Below are positions 996 to 49,659 of a DNA stretch of 64,000 nucleotides, one piece after another; position 1 is the first letter of the stretch, and each line of letters starts with the position of its first letter. Position numbers and translations under genes: made by a program. Source of the stretch: a virus (lineage: Duplodnaviria > Caudoviricetes). The notes beneath the pieces were generated by a model. That model ran no database searches. It was not told where the DNA came from and saw only the letters and a program-made list of their open reading frames with translations. Location of the stretch: positions 1-64,000 of IMG/VR virus record IMGVR_UViG_3300020050_015887; one strand, written 5' to 3'.

Positions 996-1151
996 ATGAA
1001 ACCTTATTATTTATTTGCTCAATCTGGGTTTGTTAAAGTTTATAAATCGTTTTCTGGTATTACAATTGAATCTAACTTAATTTCTTTTAATAAAGAACAG
1101 TTGATTAAACAACTAAAAGAACTTATTGTTTATTTGGAAAAACAAAAATAA
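996..1151 (+). CDS. small hypothetical protein (51 aa)
   Basis: Read by eye: MKPYYLFAQSG...YLEKQK; fills the gap exactly and has a TAATG overlap with the next gene. Confidence 0.55.
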   Translation: MKPYYLFAQSGFVKVYKSFSGITIESNLISFNKEQLIKQLKELIVYLEKQK

Positions 1152-2047
1152 TGCAACTAACCTTAGATTGGGGTAATCCCACATTTTTATCTGAATATTG
1201 GGAAAATAAACGGTTACAAACGTTTGACATTTCCGTTAATAATGATTATATTTACGGTAATCTTCCAAAATTAGAAAAAAATATACGAGAATTACATAAA
1301 AATCAAAAAAATTGCAAGGTTGACGGTAAGTACATTGTCATTGGTAACGGTGCAACGCAGATTTTGTCCGGTTTAATGCACGTTTTAACCGATTATAATA
1401 AAGTTTATGCTAAAGCGCCTTACTTTTCACGATTTCCTGTCCTAGCAAACATGAATTTTATGACTTGGGACAAAGAAGAACACAAAAAATCTTTACAAAT
1501 TATAACTTATCCAAACAATCCCGATAATTCTACAGAAATTTGTGTAAAATCTGATAAAATCATCTACGATTTAACTTATAATTGGTCAACTTATTGCAAA
1601 ACTATTAATTTTGATGAGGATATTAGTGTTTTTAGTTTATCAAAAGCAACAGGGCACGCTTCTGCACGGATTGGATGGGCGGTTCTTGAGGATAAGCAAT
1701 TAGCCGAAGACCTTAAAAATTATATTGAGCACAATTCTAATGGAGTTAGTTTTTATTCACAAGAAATTGCTTGCTTTTTGATAGAAAATTGTGTAAAATA
1801 TGAAGATAATGTATTTTTGTATGGTAAAAAAGAATTAGAGTATCGTTGGAATGTTATTAAGAGCTTAAATCTACCGTTTGAAGTATTAAATTCATCAGGT
1901 ATGTTCCTTTGGTGCAAAGGAGAATGTCCAAAAGAGTTAATTGGAATGAATGGTAGTTGTTTTGGTGTTTCTAATGAGTATTTTAGATTAAATTTAGGTA
2001 CTACTGATAAAAATATTAATAAATTGAAAGAAATGTATGGAAGATAA
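1151..2047 (+). CDS. PLP-dependent enzyme, TAA1/alliinase-like (fold type I)
   Basis: LDWGNPT..EYW, IVIGNGATQI, TYPNNPD, YDLTYNW and PLP-Lys motif FSLSKATGHASARIGWA. Confidence 0.8.
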   Translation: MQLTLDWGNPTFLSEYWENKRLQTFDISVNNDYIYGNLPKLEKNIRELHKNQKNCKVDGKYIVIGNGATQILSGLMHVLTDYNKVYAKAPYFSRFPVLANMNFMTWDKEEHKKSLQIITYPNNPDNSTEICVKSDKIIYDLTYNWSTYCKTINFDEDISVFSLSKATGHASARIGWAVLEDKQLAEDLKNYIEHNSNGVSFYSQEIACFLIENCVKYEDNVFLYGKKELEYRWNVIKSLNLPFEVLNSSGMFLWCKGECPKELIGMNGSCFGVSNEYFRLNLGTTDKNINKLKEMYGR

Positions 2048-2258
2048 TAAACAACCCCAAAAAAGAGTGTGTAAAAATTGTTTAAAAGAAGATTTTCGTA
2101 TTTTAGCTGGTAAATGGGGTAAGGATAAGCGTTTTGTTAATTTAGATGGTAAGAATTGGAATGGTAATGTGTGTCCTTCATGTAATACCGTAAGGGTGCG
2201 TTATAAAATGCGGGAACGTCGAGAAAGGGATAACAGTGGAACAGGAAATCAAGCCTAG
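2037..2258 (+). CDS. small zinc-binding protein
   Basis: CKNC...CPSC pairs; basic C-terminus. Confidence 0.6.
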   Translation: MEDNKQPQKRVCKNCLKEDFRILAGKWGKDKRFVNLDGKNWNGNVCPSCNTVRVRYKMRERRERDNSGTGNQA

Positions 2259-30051: not shown

Positions 30052-31527
30052 ATGAATTTTTATCAAGACATGATTGCAAAATATCCAGATCTTAAAGAAC
30101 AAGTTGACCGTTTAAAAAGATCTAAAGAAGCTGAAATATTAGAACCGACTTCTATGCGTGACATGGAAGATCCAACTGGAAAATTTGCTACTCAATTATC
30201 AGATTCAGAAATGCCTAGCACTTTTGTTGTTGCACCAGAAAGCACACCAAAACGTCCAGATTCAGGGTTTTTACCTGAACAAGCTGGTCCTTCTCGTCCA
30301 AGCCCTATTGCTGATTTTTTAGGAAATAGAGAACAAATTGATTTAAAACCTAGTGAGTTTGCTGGTGCTGGTGACAAAGCTTTAGCACAATTACCACCTA
30401 AACAAGACATTGTTTCTTTAGCAAAGGAAATGGCTTTATCAAAAAAACTACCAGAAGAATCATTTACAGCTAAGCCTGCTATGATGGTTCCACCTTTGAT
30501 TGAACCAAAGGCACAACAACTAGAATTAGACACCAATGACACTTTAGGTACTGTTGAAAATTTAAGAGAAGCTCAAGATAAAGCAAATGAAATTCGCAGT
30601 ATGGCTGGTTATGCACAAGCTTTTGACCGTATTGGTTCTGGTATTGCCGGAAGAAAACCAACAGATCCACAACATTTTAAAGACATGGAAAAAGATGCAG
30701 CATTGCCTGAACAACAATTAGAGGCATTGGTACAACAAGAAAAGAAAGACCCTAAGAGTGGTATTTCTAAAGGGTTTACATCTTATCTTAAACAATTTGG
30801 GGTTGATATTAAGGGCGGAATTTCTGCCGAAGTTGCAGCAACTATGCTTCCTACTATTTATAAGCAATATGAAGACAAGATTAAACTTGCCCATGATGAA
30901 AAAATTAAGGGAATGGAAATTGCTTCTAAAGAAAAAATTGAATCTGAAAAGGGCAATCTTAAAAAATCTATTGCTCAAATTGTTGCAGATAATAAAAAGG
31001 GCGCAAAGGAAAACGAATTTACTAAAACTCGTGAAAGAGAAACAGCTAAGCGATTAACTAAGTGGTCACTTGGTGAAAACAAGATGATTAGATCCGATAT
31101 TGATAAGTTAAAAGAAGTTGAAGCTAAACTAGAAGCAGCAGTTAAACAAGGTAAGGGTAATTATACAGGTCCAATTAAGGGTAATATCCCAGGACAATCT
31201 ATTTTTAATCCTGCCGGTCAAGAATTAGCTAACAGTGTTGGTTCAGTTACTCAAAAGAACTTACGTGAAATTTTGGGCGGCCAGTTTGCACAAAAAGAAG
31301 GTGAGCAACTATTAAAACGTGCATACGAGCCAGGTAAAGATGAAAAATATAACCTAGAACGTATTCGTCAACTAAGAACCGCAATGGAACAAGCCGCCGA
31401 TGCTAAAGACGAACAACTTGCTTACCTAGAAGAACATGAAGGTAACATGAAAGGATTTCGTACTGTGGCCAAAGAAAAAACCATGGACGACGAATTCAAA
31501 GATTTAGGATTTGAAGCTGATGAATAA
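30052..31527 (+). CDS. putative internal virion (ejection) protein
   Basis: ATG 30052 follows the previous stop; Pro-rich N-terminus, helical C-terminus. Confidence 0.55.
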   Translation: MNFYQDMIAKYPDLKEQVDRLKRSKEAEILEPTSMRDMEDPTGKFATQLSDSEMPSTFVVAPESTPKRPDSGFLPEQAGPSRPSPIADFLGNREQIDLKPSEFAGAGDKALAQLPPKQDIVSLAKEMALSKKLPEESFTAKPAMMVPPLIEPKAQQLELDTNDTLGTVENLREAQDKANEIRSMAGYAQAFDRIGSGIAGRKPTDPQHFKDMEKDAALPEQQLEALVQQEKKDPKSGISKGFTSYLKQFGVDIKGGISAEVAATMLPTIYKQYEDKIKLAHDEKIKGMEIASKEKIESEKGNLKKSIAQIVADNKKGAKENEFTKTRERETAKRLTKWSLGENKMIRSDIDKLKEVEAKLEAAVKQGKGNYTGPIKGNIPGQSIFNPAGQELANSVGSVTQKNLREILGGQFAQKEGEQLLKRAYEPGKDEKYNLERIRQLRTAMEQAADAKDEQLAYLEEHEGNMKGFRTVAKEKTMDDEFKDLGFEADE

Positions 31528-33415
31528 AGTAAGAGTAAAATTACCTTCCGGTAAAACAGGAAGTATTCCTGAAGAAAGTTTACCAGATGCCCTTAAAAAG
31601 GGTGCTGTTCGTCTTGATGAGAATACTCCCGTTGGTTCTTCTACAATGGCAATGCCACAAGAAGACTATACAACAATGGATAGCATTAAAGACGGTGCAG
31701 TTGATGCTAGCAGAGGATTAGCTCAAGGTATGACCATGGGTTTTTCTGATGAGCTTACTGCCGGAATGCGTGCTTTATTAAATAAGAAAAAAGAACAAAG
31801 TTTAAAGGATGCTTATAATGCAAATTTACAAGAAGAACGCACCGCTCTACACGAAAGCAGTGAACGTTCTCCTTGGGTTTATGGTGCAAGTGATATTGCT
31901 GGAAGCGTATTGCCTGCAATTGCTTCTGGTGGTGCTTCTTTATTGCCATTGGCAGGTAAAGAAAGTTTACGACAAGTTTTAAAACGTGGCGGAGCTAAAG
32001 CCTTAACCAGTGAATTAGGCACTATTGCTGCCGGAAGTGGTGCAGCAGGTGGTGTAGAAGCTTTGGGACGCTCAGAAGGTACCACAAACGACGCTATAGC
32101 TAAAGATGTTATGGGTGGTATTGCATTGGGTGCTGTTGCTGGTCCTACGTTTAAAGCTGGAAGCGATTTAATGGGTGTTGGAGTTCAACAGGCTAAAGGA
32201 TTGCTTGGCGGCGGAGATCCTACAAAACAAGCTCCATTCGTAGCTCAAGTAGGTAAAGCTTTTCAACAAGGTAAAGAAGGTAAAAATATTAGTGAAGCCT
32301 TAATTGACCAAGAACGTATTGGTGCTGAACAAATTGGACACGTAAAAGATATTGCTGGTCGTTTTAGAACTGCTGAAGACAAAATTGCTCAAGAAGGTAA
32401 AGACATGCTAGAAATGGCTAGTGTTGATAAAAAGAATTTTATTAATATTAGACCTGATGTTGACGAAATTGCCGCAAGCGTAGAAGGGTTAGTACGTTCT
32501 CAACCTCATTTGGGTTCATTAAAAGAAATTAAACAATTAAGAGATAGACTTAGTAAAGTATATAGCGTTGTAAGTCCTCAAGAAGCTGTTAATTTACAGA
32601 AAGACATTGCTAAAATTGCGTCTAGATCAACCAATCAAGAAGTTAAAGCTGTTGCTAATGAACTAGCCGATAGACTTGAAAAACAAGTTGATGAAGTTGT
32701 TCCTGGTTTAAAACAAACCAACCAAGCATTAAATGATTTTAAATATGCTGGTAGTGAAACTATCACTTCCAAAGGACTACCAAGAGAAATGCGTGCTAAT
32801 GTTGGTCCAGGCGTTACAGAAGAAAAACTAGGCGAATCAATTACCGACTTATTATCCAATTTACGTACACCTGGTAATAGCAAAGCTGACAGTGTTAGAA
32901 CCTTTGCTGAATTAAAGCGTCAATTAGAAATTTATAATAATAAATATCCCGGTAAATTAGAAAAACTAGGTATTGATATTGATGATTTAGAAAATGCAAT
33001 TGTTGATAAAGCGGATGAATTTGCTATTACACGTCAAGCATTGGGTTCTGAACCTAGAGGCGCTGGACTTGCACGTTCTGCAACTACTGGTTTAATTGGT
33101 AGCTTAGCTGCTGCCGGTAGAGGTAAGATTGTTGGCGCCGCTAACATTGCTGGTGGTATCACTAAAAAAGTGGCTGAGAGTGCTCCAGCTAAAACAAGTC
33201 AGTTTTTATACCAAAAGAGTGGCGACCAGTTGAGAGGCTTAGCAGATAAACTAATGAATTCTAATAACTCACAAGCACAATATGTTGCTCAATCATTGGT
33301 TAAAGCTCTAGATGATAAAAACATGATTGCAAAAAATGCTGCGTTATTTAATATTTTACAAAACCCCGAACTAAGAGACATGATTAAAGATGACTTGGGA
33401 TTATTAGAAGAATAA
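31520..33415 (+). CDS. putative internal virion (ejection) protein
   Basis: RGLAQGMTMGFSDELTAG motif and Gly/Ala-rich membrane-active segments; ATGA overlap at 31520. Confidence 0.6.
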   Translation: MNKVRVKLPSGKTGSIPEESLPDALKKGAVRLDENTPVGSSTMAMPQEDYTTMDSIKDGAVDASRGLAQGMTMGFSDELTAGMRALLNKKKEQSLKDAYNANLQEERTALHESSERSPWVYGASDIAGSVLPAIASGGASLLPLAGKESLRQVLKRGGAKALTSELGTIAAGSGAAGGVEALGRSEGTTNDAIAKDVMGGIALGAVAGPTFKAGSDLMGVGVQQAKGLLGGGDPTKQAPFVAQVGKAFQQGKEGKNISEALIDQERIGAEQIGHVKDIAGRFRTAEDKIAQEGKDMLEMASVDKKNFINIRPDVDEIAASVEGLVRSQPHLGSLKEIKQLRDRLSKVYSVVSPQEAVNLQKDIAKIASRSTNQEVKAVANELADRLEKQVDEVVPGLKQTNQALNDFKYAGSETITSKGLPREMRANVGPGVTEEKLGESITDLLSNLRTPGNSKADSVRTFAELKRQLEIYNNKYPGKLEKLGIDIDDLENAIVDKADEFAITRQALGSEPRGAGLARSATTGLIGSLAAAGRGKIVGAANIAGGITKKVAESAPAKTSQFLYQKSGDQLRGLADKLMNSNNSQAQYVAQSLVKALDDKNMIAKNAALFNILQNPELRDMIKDDLGLLEE

Positions 33416-41720: not shown

Positions 41721-43853
41721 TTACTCCTTACCGTAAGCCGTAGCTTCTACGGCACTGTTGTTGGACACTACTACATATTTACAATTCTGTACAAATTCAT
41801 CGATATTACGGGCGTTTAAATAAGTCATACCGCTACGTAATCCACCCTCAAAGTAGTTCATTAAATTTTCAACACTACCAGACACGGGAATTGTATAAGA
41901 TTCACCCTCTGGCGCTCTAAAACTAGCAGTTTTGTTTTGCACTTCATATGAAGACTGAGAAGCACTTCCCCTGTAAATCTTAGATAAAGGTGACATATCA
42001 GCAATGGGTGCAGCACTCTCAATCGTGCCAGCCATTAAACGACCCATAAAAACCCCTTTAACGCCTAATGCCAGGGCTTTTGATAAATCTCCAGGGGTAG
42101 ACATACCCCCGTCTTGAATGAGCGTATAACCCGTTCTAGCACAATCTAAAATACAAGAAACCGAAGGGGTTCCTACCCCGGCAACAATGCGAGTTTTGCA
42201 CGCGCTATTATGAACAATTGCATTATTGGCAATAAAACTGTGAGTAGGACAATCTACTTCAATGTCATATGTTTCAACAATTTCATCGATTGTTGTATAA
42301 TTGTTAATTCTGACAATTTGGTAATTCTCTGTTAATTGAGAATTCCAGGTTTTAAACGTTTTAGCACGAAAAGAAGGTTTAATATTTGCTAATGTAGCAT
42401 TTTTTAAACCACCAACTGTTGGTTTTCTATAAGACTGACTTGGAAAATAACCATATAATAAATAATTTATAATTGCAAACAATTCTATTAACTGTGGTGA
42501 TGTATTTGTTAATACTAATTTACCGTCGTCCTCGTGACCATCACTGTCAATTAAACCATCAAAAATTCCACGTAAATAGTTATTATTAATAACTAAATAA
42601 TTATTTGGTAAATGTTTTTCTTGTTTTTTACCAAAATTAATCATTAATCTTGCCAATGGTAAACAGTTAGCATTAACAACAATAACGTTATTGATCTTTT
42701 TTGTGGTTACGTTAATGTTAAATACTTCTTTTAATGCGGTAGTTAATTTATAAACAATGTCCGTTTCGGTTTTATTAAAATACCAAGAAACTTTTCCGCG
42801 AACAGAATTTTTATGAATATTAACTCTTGAGTGACCATCACCCAAAAATGTTCCAAAAATATATCCCAAATTATACGAAGATTTAATTTCATTATTATAT
42901 TCTTGAGCTTCAAAAGATTTTGAACGAATTGAAAATTCTTTTAAATTAATTAAAAAGTTTTCTTTTAAATCGAATTTAATATTTTTTGGCATTAACAATG
43001 TGCTTTTTTGGGTTTGATCAATTCTTTGCCATTTATATTTAGAATCCCCACTTTTGGTTGATTTATCTAAAACATTACCCAAACCCACGTCGTTAATATT
43101 TTTTATTGTAGAATAATCACCGATCCAATGTCGATGATCGGGCGTAACGATCGTTTCTTTGTAAAAATTATTGTTTTTATATTTAACTACCGATCTGAAC
43201 CCGGAGTTTTTTGTTCCAATAACCTTTACCGATTGGCCATTTTTATTAATGACAAAATCACCAACTTTTACATCTTCAATATTTTTATAGGTAGCATTTG
43301 ACATTAACACTCGCGTTCCAGCAGCAAAACAACCAGGCCCTACACCAATCTTCCAAGCCGTTGGAATTTTACCACTTTTTTCAACAAACGTGTTAATTTG
43401 TCCACTATTATCAAAATTACCAACAATAATATCTACGTCAAATAACATTTTTAGTGCTTTAAATTGGTTTAACACCTTCTCTTGAGCGCCGTTGGCCACG
43501 TCAATTACCAAAGTTTCAGCGCCAGCGTGAACTAAAGCCTCTGCGCGTTCAATCTCTGCGGTTCCTACACCTACAGACACCCAAGGCTTAACGTTATTAT
43601 AAATACCTTCTTTAAAAAGAACAATATTTTGGTCAATAGTACAAAAACGATGTACCGTAGCAATACCACCTTGTTTAATAACAGCAGCAGATAATTGCGG
43701 CGAATAAACACTATCCATATTAGAAGCGATAATAGGTACTTGTAATGTTGTGTTGCCAATTTTAACACTAGTGTCTACGTCGGAACGTGATGAAATAGTT
43801 GTAAAATTTGCTGGCACTAGGGAAATATCTTTAAATGTTAAATTTTTATTCAT
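41721..43853 (-). CDS. IMP dehydrogenase / GMP reductase family protein (no CBS domains), intein-containing
   Basis: PIIASNMDSV, IDVANG, KIGVGPG|SACKTR, QDGG, MGRLMAG, YRGSAS, PEGE, GGLRSGMTY. Confidence 0.9.
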   Translation of the reverse strand: MNKNLTFKDISLVPANFTTISSRSDVDTSVKIGNTTLQVPIIASNMDSVYSPQLSAAVIKQGGIATVHRFCTIDQNIVLFKEGIYNNVKPWVSVGVGTAEIERAEALVHAGAETLVIDVANGAQEKVLNQFKALKMLFDVDIIVGNFDNSGQINTFVEKSGKIPTAWKIGVGPGCFAAGTRVLMSNATYKNIEDVKVGDFVINKNGQSVKVIGTKNSGFRSVVKYKNNNFYKETIVTPDHRHWIGDYSTIKNINDVGLGNVLDKSTKSGDSKYKWQRIDQTQKSTLLMPKNIKFDLKENFLINLKEFSIRSKSFEAQEYNNEIKSSYNLGYIFGTFLGDGHSRVNIHKNSVRGKVSWYFNKTETDIVYKLTTALKEVFNINVTTKKINNVIVVNANCLPLARLMINFGKKQEKHLPNNYLVINNNYLRGIFDGLIDSDGHEDDGKLVLTNTSPQLIELFAIINYLLYGYFPSQSYRKPTVGGLKNATLANIKPSFRAKTFKTWNSQLTENYQIVRINNYTTIDEIVETYDIEVDCPTHSFIANNAIVHNSACKTRIVAGVGTPSVSCILDCARTGYTLIQDGGMSTPGDLSKALALGVKGVFMGRLMAGTIESAAPIADMSPLSKIYRGSASQSSYEVQNKTASFRAPEGESYTIPVSGSVENLMNYFEGGLRSGMTYLNARNIDEFVQNCKYVVVSNNSAVEATAYGKE
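42207..43331 (-). mobile_element. intein with LAGLIDADG homing endonuclease (375 aa)
   Basis: Starts CFAAGTRV, ends IVHN with +1 Ser; blocks LGYIFGTFLGDG and LRGIFDGLIDSDG; block F TYDIEVDCPTHSFIAN. Confidence 0.93.
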
Positions 43854-43905: not shown

Positions 43906-44532
43906 TTATACATAAACTTTTTCAATTACACCAGTTCGTGTTAAATCCGTAAAGTTATTAATTTGAAACAAATGATAATCGATAAGACGCGCCGTCTGAT
44001 TTATACTAAGCTGTTCAAATAAATCTGTATCTTTTCTAAATCCAAAAACAACTATAGCTGTCCCTGGACCATTTTGTTTTTTTTCATAAATACCTTGTAA
44101 GGTAACAACACACCATTTTGATGAATCGACTACATTTTGTACTCCAAAACAACATGCAACATAATTATAAATAGAAAAACTACTAAAAAATTCATCCGGT
44201 AATGGTCTGTCATCTGCAAATTTACTATCTGGGAATAAAACAATGTTCATTTCTTCCCAATAGGATTTGCTCTGTTGTATGGTGTCATACCACTCACCTT
44301 TGGGTTCTACTATTAAAACTTGAATATTTTGTTTATTGCAATACTCTATTAAATCGGTTTTTTCTTTACGTGTAACTACTAAAGGAACTAAATTATATTT
44401 AGCACAATAATTAAAATGCCATTGAATTAATGGTTGATTGGTTACAGGGTCAATCAATAATTCTTTTGATTGATTGGGTAACATACCCATCCGTGTACCT
44501 AAACCTGCTGCCGGAATAATTGCGCGTTTCAT
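43906..44532 (-). CDS. sugar-1-phosphate nucleotidyltransferase (NTP_transferase family)
   Basis: MKRAIIPAAGLGTRM...SKELL signature. Confidence 0.8.
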   Translation of the reverse strand: MKRAIIPAAGLGTRMGMLPNQSKELLIDPVTNQPLIQWHFNYCAKYNLVPLVVTRKEKTDLIEYCNKQNIQVLIVEPKGEWYDTIQQSKSYWEEMNIVLFPDSKFADDRPLPDEFFSSFSIYNYVACCFGVQNVVDSSKWCVVTLQGIYEKKQNGPGTAIVVFGFRKDTDLFEQLSINQTARLIDYHLFQINNFTDLTRTGVIEKVYV

Positions 44533-44741
44533 TTTAATAAATCCTCTATTAACACGTCTTGATAAAAGTTTAAATAATTTAAATATTCATCTTCTAATAA
44601 AACAGGTTTTTCTAAATCCAAATATTTGTCGGTTTTGAGTTTATTTTTTTGAAAATGTTCTTTCCATGTAAAATATAAAAGTGGATCAATTTTTCTATTT
44701 GTTGTTGAACCATCTTTGTTTAAGATAATCATTATAATCAT
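44529..44741 (-). CDS. C-terminal-motif family protein (QDVLIEDLLK)
   Basis: Shared motif; tandem paralogue of 44745-44948. Confidence 0.7.
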   Translation of the reverse strand: MIIMIILNKDGSTTNRKIDPLLYFTWKEHFQKNKLKTDKYLDLEKPVLLEDEYLNYLNFYQDVLIEDLLK

Positions 44742-44744
44742 ACG

Positions 44745-44948
44745 TTATTTTAATAACTCATTTATTAAAGCGTCTTGTGTATAATTCATAAAATCTGAAT
44801 ATTCGTAATCATATAAAATTGGAATGGGAGCATTTAACCACACGTCCCTTGTTTTATGTTTGGTGTAATATTTTTTCCATTGTTTGTACTTTTCAGGATT
44901 TACGTTTTCTATTTCTGTTAATCCATTTTTTAATACATGTATTTTCAT
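44745..44948 (-). CDS. C-terminal-motif family protein (QDALINELLK)
   Basis: Shared motif; tandem paralogue of 44529-44741. Confidence 0.7.
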   Translation of the reverse strand: MKIHVLKNGLTEIENVNPEKYKQWKKYYTKHKTRDVWLNAPIPILYDYEYSDFMNYTQDALINELLK

Positions 44949-45745
44949 ATTTTATTTGAATATTGTTGTAAAAATAATAACAAATCATTACTAGGTTTAA
45001 ATCGGTTTTGATGTTTTGATATTTTATTTAAATCTTCCGGTAAACCAGAATATTGAAAACTACACAATTTAACAATTTTATTATCTAGTTTATTATGTAT
45101 CCAACAAACTCCGTTTTGTTCAATAATGTCTCTTTCGTGTAAATTATAATAAGCAACATTATAAGAATAATCTCTTAAGATTGTAACATTATCAACAAAA
45201 AAAGGCAAACAGTTTAACCAACTCTGATCTAAAAAAATACCACTACCAGATACACAATGGGTTTTTTGTGTATTGTATTGCCATTTAAGAAACTCTATGG
45301 TTTCTTTTGTGTTGACCCACGCCACGGTGTCACTATTAATATGACCAGTTTGTATCACACCAATCTGATTAGGAAAATTTTGGTCTACTGGAAGTGGTGT
45401 AAGAGTGTGAGGTAATACAACGTTGTTATTATTGTCTAATAATTTATCTGGGTAACAAAAAAATTCTACATCTGCGCCAGTAAATACAACCTTTTCATAT
45501 CCTTGTTCAAAAGCATCTAACACAATTAACGGTCTAATGCTACAGATAATTTGCAAAGGGTCTTTGTATTGTGTTGAGTTATATAAATGATTAATGTTAA
45601 TTACTTCATCAAAAACGGGCGTTTCATACCCAATGTGGTATAGAATTTGTGTTGCGTGTGGGACATGTTTTTTTACACTATCAAATAACACCTTATAATT
45701 TGATAGATATAAATCAGAGGCAATACAGATAAATGCCGTTTTCAT
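44945..45745 (-). CDS. putative GT-A glycosyltransferase
   Basis: RP..V, VFTGADVEFF, FLDQSWLN..P, YNVAYYNLHER, FQYSG pattern recalled from uncharacterised GT-A proteins. Confidence 0.65.
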   Translation of the reverse strand: MKTAFICIASDLYLSNYKVLFDSVKKHVPHATQILYHIGYETPVFDEVININHLYNSTQYKDPLQIICSIRPLIVLDAFEQGYEKVVFTGADVEFFCYPDKLLDNNNNVVLPHTLTPLPVDQNFPNQIGVIQTGHINSDTVAWVNTKETIEFLKWQYNTQKTHCVSGSGIFLDQSWLNCLPFFVDNVTILRDYSYNVAYYNLHERDIIEQNGVCWIHNKLDNKIVKLCSFQYSGLPEDLNKISKHQNRFKPSNDLLLFLQQYSNKI

Positions 45746-46350
45746 TATTCAATGTTCCAGGTTGGTTTATTAATTTTTTCAAGCACTAATAGTATTTCGT
45801 ATTGTCCCCAAGCGTGTTGTTCTGGTGGTATAGAATAGTTATATCCTTTATCGCCGTCTTCTAATACTCGTACTCTATAACTATTAGGTTCAAATGCTTG
45901 TTCAATTTCTGCCAACAACGTGGCCGGAGAATAGAATACGCGATGATCTCCATTATATCTACTGGGTTTATTAAGTTTCTTTTCGTAAAGAAATTGGTGC
46001 GGCACTGCAATAATTAAATGACCGCCAATCTTAATAACCCGCATCCATTCCCGTAGGGTTTCAATACGATTATCAATGTGCTCTAAAACGTGACTACTGT
46101 AAACCGCGTCTTGAGTGCTATCACCAAACGGCAAATGTAACCCGTCATACCCTGGAGTATTTAAATTAATAACTTTAGTGTTTGGTAATACACCAACGCT
46201 ATCAATATAACCATCCGCACCTATCTCAACTGTTTCACCGGACATATATTTATCAAAAAAACCATTGTCAATTTTATCTTCATACGTGCGGCTAGTTTCT
46301 TCACCAACCCTACGTTTAAGTAATTCTTTTTTATTATTTTTATAACTCAT
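45745..46350 (-). CDS. class I SAM-dependent methyltransferase (type 11-like)
   Basis: VEIGADG, LPFGDSTQDAVYSSHVLEHI, EWMRVIKIGGHLIIAVP. Confidence 0.85.
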   Translation of the reverse strand: MSYKNNKKELLKRRVGEETSRTYEDKIDNGFFDKYMSGETVEIGADGYIDSVGVLPNTKVINLNTPGYDGLHLPFGDSTQDAVYSSHVLEHIDNRIETLREWMRVIKIGGHLIIAVPHQFLYEKKLNKPSRYNGDHRVFYSPATLLAEIEQAFEPNSYRVRVLEDGDKGYNYSIPPEQHAWGQYEILLVLEKINKPTWNIE

Positions 46351-47321
46351 AAAATTTTATCCAATTCTAGTATAAATAAATCCGGCGTTAAAGATTTTAA
46401 ACACTCAATTTCAGCACCGGTTGCATTTTTATCGTAATAACACTTAGTAAAAGATTCATGATGAAAAGCAAATACAAAATTACTTTGACAAAACCGACAC
46501 TCAACAGAATCAGGCGGTATTACAGGTATAAAATTATATCCTTTAACTCCGTTGTTTCTAAACGGTACGCGATGTTGTGGGTCTACCGTTGTAAAACCAC
46601 ATACAACCGTGTTTGTTGGGTGTGTTGCAGCCAAATGAATTAAACCATTATCCAAACCAACTGTAGTTTTTGCTCCATATAAAATTTTAGCTGTTTCTAG
46701 AAGATTAGTTTGGTCTATTAAATTAATTCCTTTGTGGTAATTAATAGTGGTGTCAAATTTACCTTTAATAATATAATTAAATCCATTGTCGGTTTCTTTT
46801 TTACCTAAAAATACTGGAGTATAACCTTTAAACAACACATAATCAATAATAGAATTAATGGTGGTAGGTAAGAACTCTCTAACCGTGCTGGTAAAGCCGG
46901 TTGTAATAACCACATATTTATCTGGCAAGTTAAACTTAGTGATATTAACGTCATCAAGTTTAATAGGAAGGTAGTTTTTGTGTTTATCTTCTACTTGTTT
47001 ATTAATAAATAAATTAAACCCATGTTCAGTCATATGGTATGACAGGTTTGTGTGAGTATTAGAAGCTGAGGCTCTAGTCGGAAATAGTTTATTAAACTTA
47101 TCTTTTTGAGAAAACTTTTTTAATACAACTCTACCAGGAGTTAAAGAACGCTTAGCAATATCATAGAAAAAATCAGGTATCCAAACGTGGGGGATTACTT
47201 CAGGGTGATTTTGAATTACATATTCAATAGCTGGAAGTCTTGCAAGACAATCACCCAATCCACCATCGTTAAATAAGAAATTCACATGAAATGTTCTGTC
47301 CGCTTTATTATTTCTAAACAT
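46347..47321 (-). CDS. GT9 family (heptosyltransferase-like) glycosyltransferase
   Basis: GGLGDCL, NLIDQTNLLET, VGLDNGLIHLAA, C..CQ...C motif. Confidence 0.82.
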   Translation of the reverse strand: MFRNNKADRTFHVNFLFNDGGLGDCLARLPAIEYVIQNHPEVIPHVWIPDFFYDIAKRSLTPGRVVLKKFSQKDKFNKLFPTRASASNTHTNLSYHMTEHGFNLFINKQVEDKHKNYLPIKLDDVNITKFNLPDKYVVITTGFTSTVREFLPTTINSIIDYVLFKGYTPVFLGKKETDNGFNYIIKGKFDTTINYHKGINLIDQTNLLETAKILYGAKTTVGLDNGLIHLAATHPTNTVVCGFTTVDPQHRVPFRNNGVKGYNFIPVIPPDSVECRFCQSNFVFAFHHESFTKCYYDKNATGAEIECLKSLTPDLFILELDKIL

Positions 47322-48136
47322 TATTTACGGTCCTGAATTTCTTTTAATGTTGGAGCATATACCCCAAATTGTTCTACACAAACAGCAGCCGCCTTAGAAG
47401 CAAATTCAATTGCTTTGTTTAATTCATATCCGTTCATTATAGCATAAGTTAATGATGCAATACAAGTGTCACCACACCCAGTAACATCAACAACTCTAGT
47501 GCTTAGTGCTGGCATAGAATCAATAAAGTTTTGTTGTTGTGTTTTGGCGTGCATACCATTATCACCATCTGTAATAACAACAATTTGAGCATTAGTAATT
47601 TCAAATAGTTTTCTAAAAATTTTAGGCAGGCTAGTTTCTCCGGTAGCCGTTTTGGCTTCTTCTAAATTGGGTTTTAATAAATAACAATTTTTATAGTTAT
47701 TAAAATCTACATTCTTACTTGGATCAACAAAAGTTTTAATACCAGAAGAGAATACAGCATTATAAATTGCTGGAGTAAACCAACCCTTACCATAATCTTC
47801 AACAATAATAGCATCCGTGGTTGTTTTGTATAAGTTAATAAAATCTAAGATCTCTTGTTCAGAACAGTTTCTAGCGGGATAATCAACATCAATACGAGCT
47901 ATTTGTTTATCTTTTTCAAACACTCTAGTTTTAGTGATGGTGTTGCCATCTGCTTTTTCATGAACATTTACACCAAGTTTATACAAATTCGTAGCCACAT
48001 TATGAGACATTCCCCATTTTGTAATTTGATTATTAACTTTTAATACAGGAACAAGAATGTTTTCTGGTGATTGACGTGTGTGTTCGGTGTATAAATATAT
48101 ATCAGCGCACTGTTCGCCGAGTACCATGACATTCAT
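47321..48136 (-). CDS. heptose-7-phosphate kinase (PfkB family, HldE/RfaE kinase domain only)
   Basis: RQSPE..VPV, NVATNL..LG, EDYGKG, KPNLEEA, VVDVTGCGDT. Confidence 0.85.
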   Translation of the reverse strand: MNVMVLGEQCADIYLYTEHTRQSPENILVPVLKVNNQITKWGMSHNVATNLYKLGVNVHEKADGNTITKTRVFEKDKQIARIDVDYPARNCSEQEILDFINLYKTTTDAIIVEDYGKGWFTPAIYNAVFSSGIKTFVDPSKNVDFNNYKNCYLLKPNLEEAKTATGETSLPKIFRKLFEITNAQIVVITDGDNGMHAKTQQQNFIDSMPALSTRVVDVTGCGDTCIASLTYAIMNGYELNKAIEFASKAAAVCVEQFGVYAPTLKEIQDRK

Positions 48137-48384
48137 TTTAATACACTTTCTAAATTAGAATAAAATTTATCATTAAAAAAATCATTTAATAACCGAACTT
48201 CTCGTTCAAGGAATAAAAGTTTAACTATTTCTGTATTAGTGTTTTGTTTTCTAAAATTAATATGATCTTGTAAATACCACCGGTAATCATTATTTAATGA
48301 ATTTAAAAATTCATCCAATTGTTCTTGTGTTAAAGTAACAATTTTGTCTTTACTTCCACCTGCTTGAAAAATTACATATTTCAC
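48133..48384 (-). CDS. C-terminal-motif family protein (FYSNLESVLK)
   Basis: Shared motif; sits between gmhA and the kinase. Confidence 0.7.
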   Translation of the reverse strand: MKYVIFQAGGSKDKIVTLTQEQLDEFLNSLNNDYRWYLQDHINFRKQNTNTEIVKLLFLEREVRLLNDFFNDKFYSNLESVLK

Positions 48385-48953
48385 AGTAATTGTTCCTCAA
48401 CAAAATTACAAATAGAATGCATTAGCACTTCATGTACTGTTTGTATTGTGCTAGTTCTTTCAGATTGAGCATGAAATGTTTTCGTAGCTAAAAAACTACC
48501 TTTGCTATTATTTTTACCTGAAAACAAGATGCTTTTAATTTTATGTTGTTCGCAATATTCTAAAGCTTTTACTATATTTGCAGAATTACCGCTAGTAGAA
48601 AATGCAATGAATAAATCTTTATCCGTGGCCTTACCTTCTAGTTGCCGAGAAAACACTTGTTCATAACTATAGTCGTTTGCAATAGCTGTAATGGTAGCTA
48701 AATCGGTGGTTAAAGCCTCTACATTGAGCGCCTTGCGTTCTTTTTCAAACCGTCCTACCAATTCCCCTGCCATGTGGGAGGCGCCGCTAGCAGACCCGCC
48801 GTTTCCAGCAATAAATATCTTATTACCTGTTTGTATAGTTTTTGTGATGATGTTCTGAATAGATTTTAAAGTAGTTTTATTAGCAATAATAGAATTGGTC
48901 AGTGAGGTTTGCACTTCTAAAGTGTGGTTTTGAAAGTAGTGTTGTAAATTCAT
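48381..48953 (-). CDS. gmhA: phosphoheptose isomerase
   Basis: AGNGGSA, TAIANDYSYEQVFSRQ, FSTSGNSANIVKAL, IQTVH SIS-domain motifs. Confidence 0.92.
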   Translation of the reverse strand: MNLQHYFQNHTLEVQTSLTNSIIANKTTLKSIQNIITKTIQTGNKIFIAGNGGSASGASHMAGELVGRFEKERKALNVEALTTDLATITAIANDYSYEQVFSRQLEGKATDKDLFIAFSTSGNSANIVKALEYCEQHKIKSILFSGKNNSKGSFLATKTFHAQSERTSTIQTVHEVLMHSICNFVEEQLL

Positions 48954-49168
48954 TTTAATAACTTATCAATAGATTTACTAACTTTTTTTTCTAGTTTAAA
49001 CTGTCTTAACAATTTTCTAATTTTTTTATCTTCAGAATAAGACATAGAAGGAAAATCTTGATCAATCCAAATAACTTTACTATCATCTAAAACGTTAGAA
49101 ATTTTTTGTATAAATTCTTTACTTACATATTCTTTTTTACCATTAAAATATAATATATAATGTTTCAT
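48950..49168 (-). CDS. C-terminal-motif family protein (VSKSIDKLLK)
   Basis: Shared motif; ATGA overlaps at both ends. Confidence 0.7.
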   Translation of the reverse strand: MKHYILYFNGKKEYVSKEFIQKISNVLDDSKVIWIDQDFPSMSYSEDKKIRKLLRQFKLEKKVSKSIDKLLK

Positions 49169-49644
49169 GGTAGGTTTAATCCAGATATTACTTTTAATAA
49201 AATCCAGTTATTCTTAGCACAAATTCCTGCCAATTGACCACGCGGATCATCATCCACCAATATAACTTGATCGCCTTTTTTTTGATATTTTTTAATCTCT
49301 TTTTGTTTAAAATATCCATAACTTGTTTTATCATTTGATGAACGCATTATTAATTTACGTTTAGGAAATTTATGTTTGGTTAACCATTTTACGGTTATTG
49401 CTCTATACTTTTCATCTCTGCTAGTTAGATAAACAAACTTACCTAATTTTCTAGCAAGTGTACGCATAGACTTAATAACTTTGTCATTAAGCATGTCATG
49501 TTCTTTTTGAACAAGGTCCAACCAATGTAAATATTCAGCACTATAATGCGTTTTATTTTTAGGTGCTTTAATAGACTTAAGACGGCGTGAGCTATCACAC
49601 ACCGTACCGTCTAAATCAACATAAATTTTTACTTTATTCTTCAT
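49165..49644 (-). CDS. HAD-superfamily phosphatase
   Basis: YVDLDGT motif I, LTSR motif II, LVDDDP motif IV; ATG 49644. Confidence 0.8.
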   Translation of the reverse strand: MKNKVKIYVDLDGTVCDSSRRLKSIKAPKNKTHYSAEYLHWLDLVQKEHDMLNDKVIKSMRTLARKLGKFVYLTSRDEKYRAITVKWLTKHKFPKRKLIMRSSNDKTSYGYFKQKEIKKYQKKGDQVILVDDDPRGQLAGICAKNNWILLKVISGLNLP

Positions 49645-49659
49645 AATAAATATTTGCAA

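Follow-up and report, generated by a model that had tools for sequence, protein, structure and literature searches.

A compact Alliinase_C-family enzyme gene, related to TAA1 and alliinase, carried by uncultured tailed phages

The stretch of DNA analysed here (the window) comprises bases 1–64000 of a single 84.5-kb virus record (G000), whose completeness CheckV puts at 97%. Close to its start lies a gene whose product, P0001, is a fold-type I pyridoxal 5′-phosphate (PLP) enzyme of the Alliinase_C family, to which the Arabidopsis enzyme TAA1 and the alliinases of Allium belong. The open reading frame (ORF) begins with ATG and runs uninterrupted for 298 codons, and the strand opposite is rich in stops.

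1151..2047, plus strand: P0001 gene, encoding a 298-aa Alliinase_C/TAA1-family PLP enzyme (evidence from ORF, Pfam, PDB, AlphaFold2 (AF2)/Foldseek and dN/dS analyses)

A preliminary description made from the letters of the DNA had placed a 298-aa ORF at exactly these coordinates and quoted six peptides from it, all of which (6/6) occur in the translation: LTLDWGNPTFLSEYW (residues 3–17), YIVIGNGATQI (61–71), TYPNNPD (119–125), IYDLTYNW (138–145), FSLSKATGHASARIGWAVLED (161–181) and NGVSFYSQ (197–204). It had further held that the protein matches TAA1 from end to end and lies nearer to TAA1 and alliinase than to generic aminotransferases. Both statements are borne out. The TAA1 motifs given there are present in the HMMER alignment to PDB 3bwn, BLASTP against a green-algal homologue covers residues 2–282 of P0001 with the C-terminal Arg included, and Pfam, PDB, Foldseek and tree comparisons agree on the closer relationship.

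Specifically, the Pfam profile Alliinase_C matches P0001 with an E-value of 3.6e-43 and 148.3 bits (cut-off 22), as against 3.4e-11 and 43.4 bits for Aminotran_1_2; the match begins at profile position 3 and ends at 274 of 363. It is the margin between the two profiles that counts, because the Alliinase_C model weakly scores ordinary aminotransferases too. A HMMER search of PDB sequences ranks TAA1 (3bwn, 1.4e-29) ahead of garlic alliinase (4e-23), with the next aminotransferase at 1e-4. An AlphaFold2 model built from a 40-sequence family alignment has a predicted local distance difference test (pLDDT) score of 95 and a predicted template-modelling score (pTM) of 0.93. When this model is searched with Foldseek, TAA1 is again the top match (2e-29, template-modelling (TM) score 0.90 normalised to the query) and alliinase the second (1e-26). 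The generic class I aminotransferases come next, none better than 4e-17 and with TM scores of about 0.73, which leaves a 12-order gap in E-value. P0001 reaches no curated cut-off in NCBIfam, where its best match is hisC (31 bits against a cut-off of 276.55), and matches no family in PHROGs. Residues H49, N54, W145, F161, R232 and W233 are common to P0001 and the eukaryotic members and are not found in generic aminotransferases.

Phylogenetic analysis gives the same picture. A tree of 82 rows and 327 columns was computed with IQ-TREE under LG+C20+F+G4 with posterior mean site frequencies (PMSF), and was rooted with five ordinary aminotransferases from a Flavobacteriaceae metagenome-assembled genome (MAG). 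A core Alliinase_C clade of 70 rows (support 97/99) takes in the eukaryotes together with every short form, viral or metagenomic, and the long forms from metagenomes and bacteria; the ordinary aminotransferases and a ClpP-linked group fall outside it. P0001 groups with TAA1 and alliinase, apart from ordinary class I aminotransferases, as the preliminary description would have it.

These results bear on the possibility that P0001 is an ordinary aminotransferase of the HisC/AspC/CobD type, recently captured from the host, whose resemblance to TAA1 is generic. The low scores that Alliinase_C also gives to ordinary aminotransferases of control bacteria speak for this explanation, but it is refuted by the Pfam comparison (148 versus 43 bits), the hisC score far below its 276-bit cut-off, the 12-order Foldseek gap and the placement in the tree (97/99), and we give it practically no weight.

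Within the core clade, the 14 eukaryotic sequences (chlorophytes, Euglena, and TAR2-like, TAR3/4-like and alliin-lyase-like plant proteins) are monophyletic (100/98), and their nearest relatives are long metagenomic and bacterial forms of 390–465 aa (98/92). P0001 belongs to a viral subclade of 13 rows (97/95). Deep branching within the viral radiation is poorly resolved, with the eukaryotes and long bacterial forms sitting inside it; an approximately unbiased (AU) test does not reject a single sister clade of viral short forms (p 0.276). By its sequence, P0001 is outside both the TAA1/TAR1/TAR2 land-plant clade and the eukaryotic clade as a whole, and is an orthologue of neither TAA1 nor alliinase. 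No plant activity is therefore transferable to P0001. The TAA1/alliinase-like reading with which the analysis began stands as to family membership, with the refinements that P0001 is an orthologue of neither enzyme and that it is one of the many members of a very large phage-borne clade.

The residues expected of an active site are in place, at the following codons.

1172..1249, plus strand: predicted N-terminal substrate-lid segment from Gly8 to Tyr33 (alliinase Gly64 and Tyr92), both ends invariant
1517..1519, plus strand: Asn123 codon, in the PNNP motif (alliinase Asn207)
1568..1579, plus strand: Asp140 to Tyr143 codons, DLTY (alliinase Asp225 and Tyr228)
1643..1645, plus strand: Lys165 codon, predicted PLP Schiff-base lysine (aligns with TAA1 Lys217 and alliinase Lys251)
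1667..1669, plus strand: Arg173 codon, predicted PLP-phosphate-binding Arg (alliinase Arg259)
1985..1987, plus strand: Arg279 codon in YFRLNLG, predicted Arg binding the substrate α-carboxylate (alliinase Arg401, aspartate aminotransferase (AspAT) Arg386)

All eight residues (G8, Y33, N123, D140, Y143, K165, R173 and R279) are invariant in 40/40 family members, which are 34–48% identical to the query, and all groups of the tree alignment conserve them. Arg279 is aligned in the second HMMER domain and in BLASTP comparisons with the green-algal and long bacterial forms. The alignments also reproduce the published numbering of the catalytic lysine in alliinase (Lys251) and TAA1 (Lys217), which lends confidence to the mapping of the other residues. 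The roles in PLP and α-carboxylate binding are assigned to the eight residues from what is established for class I aminotransferases and alliinase, in which the equivalent of Asp140 pairs with the pyridine nitrogen of PLP and that of Tyr143 with its O3′. On this basis, Lys165 would hold PLP as an internal aldimine with the assistance of Asp140, Asn123, Tyr143 and Arg173, and Arg279, Gly8 and Tyr33 would bind the α-carboxylate of an L-α-amino acid, with Tyr33 probably supplied by the other subunit of a homodimer. That the carboxylate arginine has been kept favours a substrate of this kind.

The intact site belongs to a gene under purifying selection, as judged from a dN/dS of about 0.11 against an 83%-identical relative (at a dS that is near saturation), and to a protein that is about 90 residues shorter than TAA1. 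Missing are about 25 N-terminal residues, several of the loops and, in the C-terminal small domain, some 35 residues. At about 300 residues, P0001 and its relatives are among the smallest fold-type I aminotransferase-like proteins, and would make an attractive minimal scaffold for structural and engineering work.

P0001 belongs to a large and diverse clade of proteins of about 300–350 aa encoded on viral contigs of several unrelated phage lineages. A search of 5.8 billion proteins returned 183 matches, nearly all of 290–330 aa and 36–48% identical to P0001, many on contigs of 60–90 kb. An exhaustive search of representatives recovered 781 clusters (at 50% identity) with E≤1e-3, 111 of them with E≤1e-30; the best clusters of the clade, with E-values of 1e-30 to 1e-76, are carried mostly by uncultured phages. 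IMG/VR contributes 37 loci in at least three genome contexts, and the nearest ESM Atlas clusters are 83–99% viral. One IMG/VR contig bearing the label of a giant-virus MAG (GVMAG) encodes a divergent member of the family whose branch is very long (L034, 7078–7812).

The clade is found almost only in uncultured phages. A tblastn search of 50,697 GenBank phage records with three divergent members found no homologue; the sole matches were to a generic aminotransferase, 26% identical, in two Staphylococcus phage records. Among GTDB representative genomes, searched with a 12-sequence alignment, there is one match only, on a 15.7-kb contig binned into a Flavobacteriaceae MAG, and 400 other genomes sampled from that phylum hold no homologue at E≤1e-15, which also speaks against recent capture from the host. 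The host is probably a member of the Bacteroidota/Flavobacteriaceae.

Reviews and large surveys treat the Alliinase_C/TAA family as all but restricted to plants and protists (PMC11214133, PMC9309667), and in the debate over the origin of plant TAA enzymes the best prokaryotic relatives cited reached only E ~1e-8 and 25% identity (PMC4754409). Our full-text literature search found no paper linking alliinase, TAA1 or PF04864 to phages. Set against this literature, the earlier remark that a compact phage version is unexpected holds. Assignment to the family is in itself no novelty, since some metagenomic members already carry the automatic label L-tryptophan-pyruvate aminotransferase; the novelty lies in the existence of a large, compact clade borne by phages and in its place beside the eukaryotic family. 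The clade amounts to a widespread accessory enzyme of phages, one without a PHROG or a match in the GenBank phage records, and the hundreds of phage-borne clusters, together with the long bacterial forms that group with eukaryotes, provide real outgroups for rooting the TAA/alliinase tree.

In G000, the gene is flanked on either side by a short ORF that overlaps it.

996..1151, plus strand: 51-aa ORF upstream of P0001, whose TAA stop overlaps the enzyme ATG as TAATG
2037..2258, plus strand: 73-aa ORF downstream of P0001, with an 11-nt overlap with the enzyme gene

The TAATG overlap suggests that the 51-aa ORF and P0001 are probably co-transcribed and translationally coupled, and the two overlaps together place the enzyme gene inside a tightly packed plus-strand operon. 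Relatives of the 73-aa ORF adjoin the enzyme gene in ten related loci and also occur in relatives that lack the enzyme. The leader upstream of P0001 is A-rich and has no Shine-Dalgarno sequence, and a scan for promoters and terminators around the gene found such sites to be no commoner than in shuffled sequence.

The surrounding genome is plainly that of a phage. Large terminase, portal and M15 endolysin genes lie just downstream of P0001, and a split PolB, a primase-helicase and ERF are present, as are Dam and deaminases. The G+C content is about 33%, and a search of the phage sequence for tRNA genes found none. Several other genes deserve a description of their own. An IMPDH/GMP-reductase-family gene of 710 aa (window 41721–43853, minus strand) is split by an intein: its protein has a Hint domain from about residue 175, a weak LAGLIDADG match and its best IMPDH-domain match at residues 550–705. 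Beyond the window, at genome positions 64743–65372 and 67513–68235 (743–1372 and 3513–4235 of L044, both on the minus strand), lie genes for a peptide deformylase (8e-43) and a subtilase-family protease. A second gene resembling a dCMP/cytidine deaminase is found at genome positions 68219–68629.

To compare neighbourhoods, all ORFs of 40 loci were clustered and the conserved neighbours were scanned against Pfam. Three arrangements were recognized. In group A, the lineage of the window, the enzyme gene lies close upstream of the genes for the M15 endolysin and the terminase or, in some members, with the replication module instead. In group B, phages of 120–160 kb, it lies between GroEL-like and SbcC-like genes. 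The order here, which is kept across deep divergence of the enzyme, is GroEL-like gene, one or two ORFs of about 90 aa, Alliinase_C enzyme and SbcC/SMC-like ATPase (L019, 5950–10698; L125, 3432–8479; L127, 2578–7225). In group C, whose phages measure about 165 kb, the gene between those for ClpP and a CYTH protein encodes a PLP enzyme that is more distantly related. Its loci (L036, 6328–9465, and others among L023–L037) encode enzymes of 23–30% identity, flanked by a ClpP protease gene, a gene of 200–270 aa with no known function and a CYTH-domain gene, and located downstream of UvsX-like, primase and helicase genes. Across the 40 loci, no metabolic partner common to groups A, B and C was found. 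A search for longer, fused (Rosetta-stone) forms also found none, which is weak negative evidence.

Many phages with a terminase 49–59% identical to that of G000 have no enzyme gene upstream of it. Whole-record searches found none anywhere in two complete relatives with direct terminal repeats (G402 and G404), nor in a third that is 96% complete; 5/5 positive controls were matched in the same searches. The P0001 gene is therefore accessory, because complete relatives exist without it. When the gene content of three related genomes with the enzyme was compared with that of three without it, no metabolic gene shared the enzyme's pattern of presence. A 634-aa late-region protein without a family match (window 31511–33415, plus strand) is the only G000 gene besides the enzyme that occurs in both positive relatives and in 0/3 negatives, although a comparison of six genomes is too small to support a judgement. 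The protein may serve in host recognition, in which case the positive phages would share host range.

This comparison, along with the arrangement of the genome, bears on the earlier suggestion that the enzyme, if not an aromatic amino-acid aminotransferase or a C–S lyase, serves base or sugar modification, which found no support. One form of it would make P0001 a sugar aminotransferase of the phage heptose nucleotide-sugar cluster, a co-oriented set of genes for an NTP-transferase, a SAM-dependent methyltransferase, a GT9 heptosyltransferase-like protein, a PfkB kinase, a SIS/GmhA-like protein and a HAD phosphatase (window 43906–49659, minus strand). The presence of these genes in the same genome is what recommends the idea. 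However, the cluster is about 42 kb from the enzyme gene and on the opposite strand; it is wholly missing from the enzyme-positive G407 and G408, and parts of it are present in the enzyme-negative G403 and G404. The absence from G407 and G408 indicates that the cluster is unrelated to the enzyme. Furthermore, Arg279 is kept and P0001 matches amino-acid enzymes rather than DegT-type sugar aminotransferases, so that a role in this cluster appears extremely unlikely.

In the other form, P0001 would trim an amino acid linked to a nucleotide or to the phage DNA, much as happens in thymidine hypermodification. There are phages in which PLP enzymes act on bases decorated with amino acids (PMC8989533). 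Two further points favour the idea: the substrates in such pathways retain a free α-amino and α-carboxylate group, and the gene is found amid replication and recombination genes in several lineages. The known PLP enzymes of the pathway are, however, described as tryptophan-synthase-β-like proteins of fold type II, unlike the fold type I of P0001, and they accompany 5-HMUDK, aGPT-Pplase and a dUMP hydroxymethylase (PMC8989533). G000, at 97% completeness, encodes no ThyA-type or ThyX-type homologue, and no kinase or transferase partner was found in any context or co-varying with the gene, although the aGPT-Pplase profile itself was not searched. We regard trimming of this kind as very unlikely.

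The long relatives offer a different setting. One is found among bacterial signalling genes, one beside four amino-acid permease genes and one in an archaeal- or eukaryote-like neighbourhood. The second of these, a 404-aa protein from a Bacillota MAG (L057, 1–7592), is encoded directly after the four permease genes and a nucleoside-transporter-like (Gate) gene, and such neighbours hint at participation of the cellular forms in amino-acid catabolism. The third, of 391 aa (L055, 1–11441), has eIF2-alpha, OTU, GPN-loop ATPase and LRR genes as neighbours in a dense contig, a context that is archaeal, eukaryote-like or giant-virus-like rather than bacterial.

Taken together, the carboxylate arginine and the permease neighbours of a long-form relative support an amino-acid substrate, and P0001 is very probably an active PLP enzyme that works on an α-amino acid. 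Because no phage-encoded partner travels with the gene, this would most likely be a free amino acid of the infected cell. We lean towards an active stand-alone Alliinase_C enzyme, accessory in several uncultured tailed-phage lineages, that most likely carries out TAA1-like transamination of a free host amino acid. A bulky or aromatic amino acid would give up its amino group to pyruvate or another 2-oxo acid and so become the corresponding 2-oxo acid. The data establish that P0001 is of this family, has an intact active site, is under purifying selection, belongs to a phage-restricted clade and is encoded by an accessory gene; what reaction it catalyses, on which substrate and to what advantage for the phage is what we infer here. 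As to reaction type, transamination is favoured over C–S β-elimination and other PLP chemistry. Taken by itself, the assignment of P0001 as a transaminase is a tentative one that falls just short of being probable, and PLP chemistry other than transamination or β-elimination is rather improbable.

The most substantial competitor is an alliinase-like β-lyase (C–S lyase), which would convert host cysteine, cystine, cystathionine, S-alkyl-cysteine (or its sulfoxide) or a sulfonated amino acid to pyruvate, ammonia and reactive sulfur species. Garlic alliinase is the second-best match in both sequence and fold, the lid GNPTFLSEYW has an F-L pair in common with the GDGLFLEEYW of alliinase, and alliinase Gly64, Tyr92 and Arg401 all have invariant counterparts in P0001. 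Yet the monophyly of the eukaryotes as a whole (100/98) makes P0001 equidistant from the TAA and alliinase subclades, and P0001 has no counterpart of the EGF-like N-terminal domain of alliinase. Nor does the genomic context contain a pointer to sulfur metabolism. We consider a β-lyase unlikely, though deserving of attention.

Several points weigh against the transaminase interpretation. Every activity proposed for the viral clade is assigned from sequence and structural model. Orthology cannot be invoked to transfer either Trp transamination or C–S lysis to the viral clade, which branches outside the eukaryotic TAA/alliinase clade, and the family holds a transaminase (TAA1) and a lyase (alliinase) on one scaffold, so sequence does not by itself fix the type of reaction. 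In addition, the C-terminal small domain comprises only about 60 residues, the Pfam match stops at 274/363 and the Foldseek TM score normalised to the target is 0.75; the shortened domain could give an altered substrate pocket. The host assignment, for its part, draws on one binned contig, the G+C content and the A-rich upstream sequence that lacks a Shine-Dalgarno element.

A broader interpretation, which we put forward as a doubtful conjecture, would join phylogeny and function. The compact phage clade would be a close non-eukaryotic sister or source pool of the plant and algal TAA-alliinase family, and its members would make a bioactive product in infected aquatic bacteria. If so, this product might be indole-3-pyruvate (an auxin precursor) or a reactive sulfenic acid or thiosulfinate, for example, and phage infection would change bacterium–alga signalling or chemical defence.

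Among known systems, the PLP decarboxylases of phage thymidine hypermodification (M6 gp52 and ViI gp226) are also phage-encoded and act on an amino-acid moiety, but differ from P0001 in their tryptophan-synthase-β-like fold and in their location inside 5-HMUDK/aGPT-Pplase clusters (PMC8989533). The long bacterial and metagenomic Alliinase_C proteins (390–465 aa; for example, P0265 and P0245, the latter in a Bacillota MAG) share the core clade with P0001. BLASTP between such a form and P0001 gives 28% identity from residue 44 to near the C terminus (E 6e-36), a span that takes in the catalytic Lys and the C-terminal Arg. The long forms differ in that they group with eukaryotes and are cellular genes with SpoIIE/STAS or amino-acid permease neighbours. 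Allium alliinase (PDB 1lk9/2hor/2hox) is the second-best match, and its Gly64, Tyr92, Asn207, Asp225, Tyr228, Lys251, Arg259 and Arg401 have invariant counterparts in P0001. Unlike alliinase, P0001 has no N-terminal EGF-like domain (no PF04863 match) and is much shorter. S-alkyl-cysteine sulfoxides, on which alliinase acts, are unsupported as substrates in a bacterial host. The best match in both sequence and fold is Arabidopsis TAA1 (PDB 3bwn/3bwo; PF04864), with 26% identity over about 350 columns. Unlike TAA1, P0001 is phage-encoded, about 90 residues shorter and outside the eukaryotic clade, and it has no YUCCA-type partner among the scanned genes. Neither protein has an EGF-like domain, and the two have in common the same PLP lysine (K217 = K165), the same full set of PLP and carboxylate ligands and the motifs GxP...EYW, ELH, PNNPD, DxxYxW, SKxTGHAxxRxGW, GVSxxSQ and RW.

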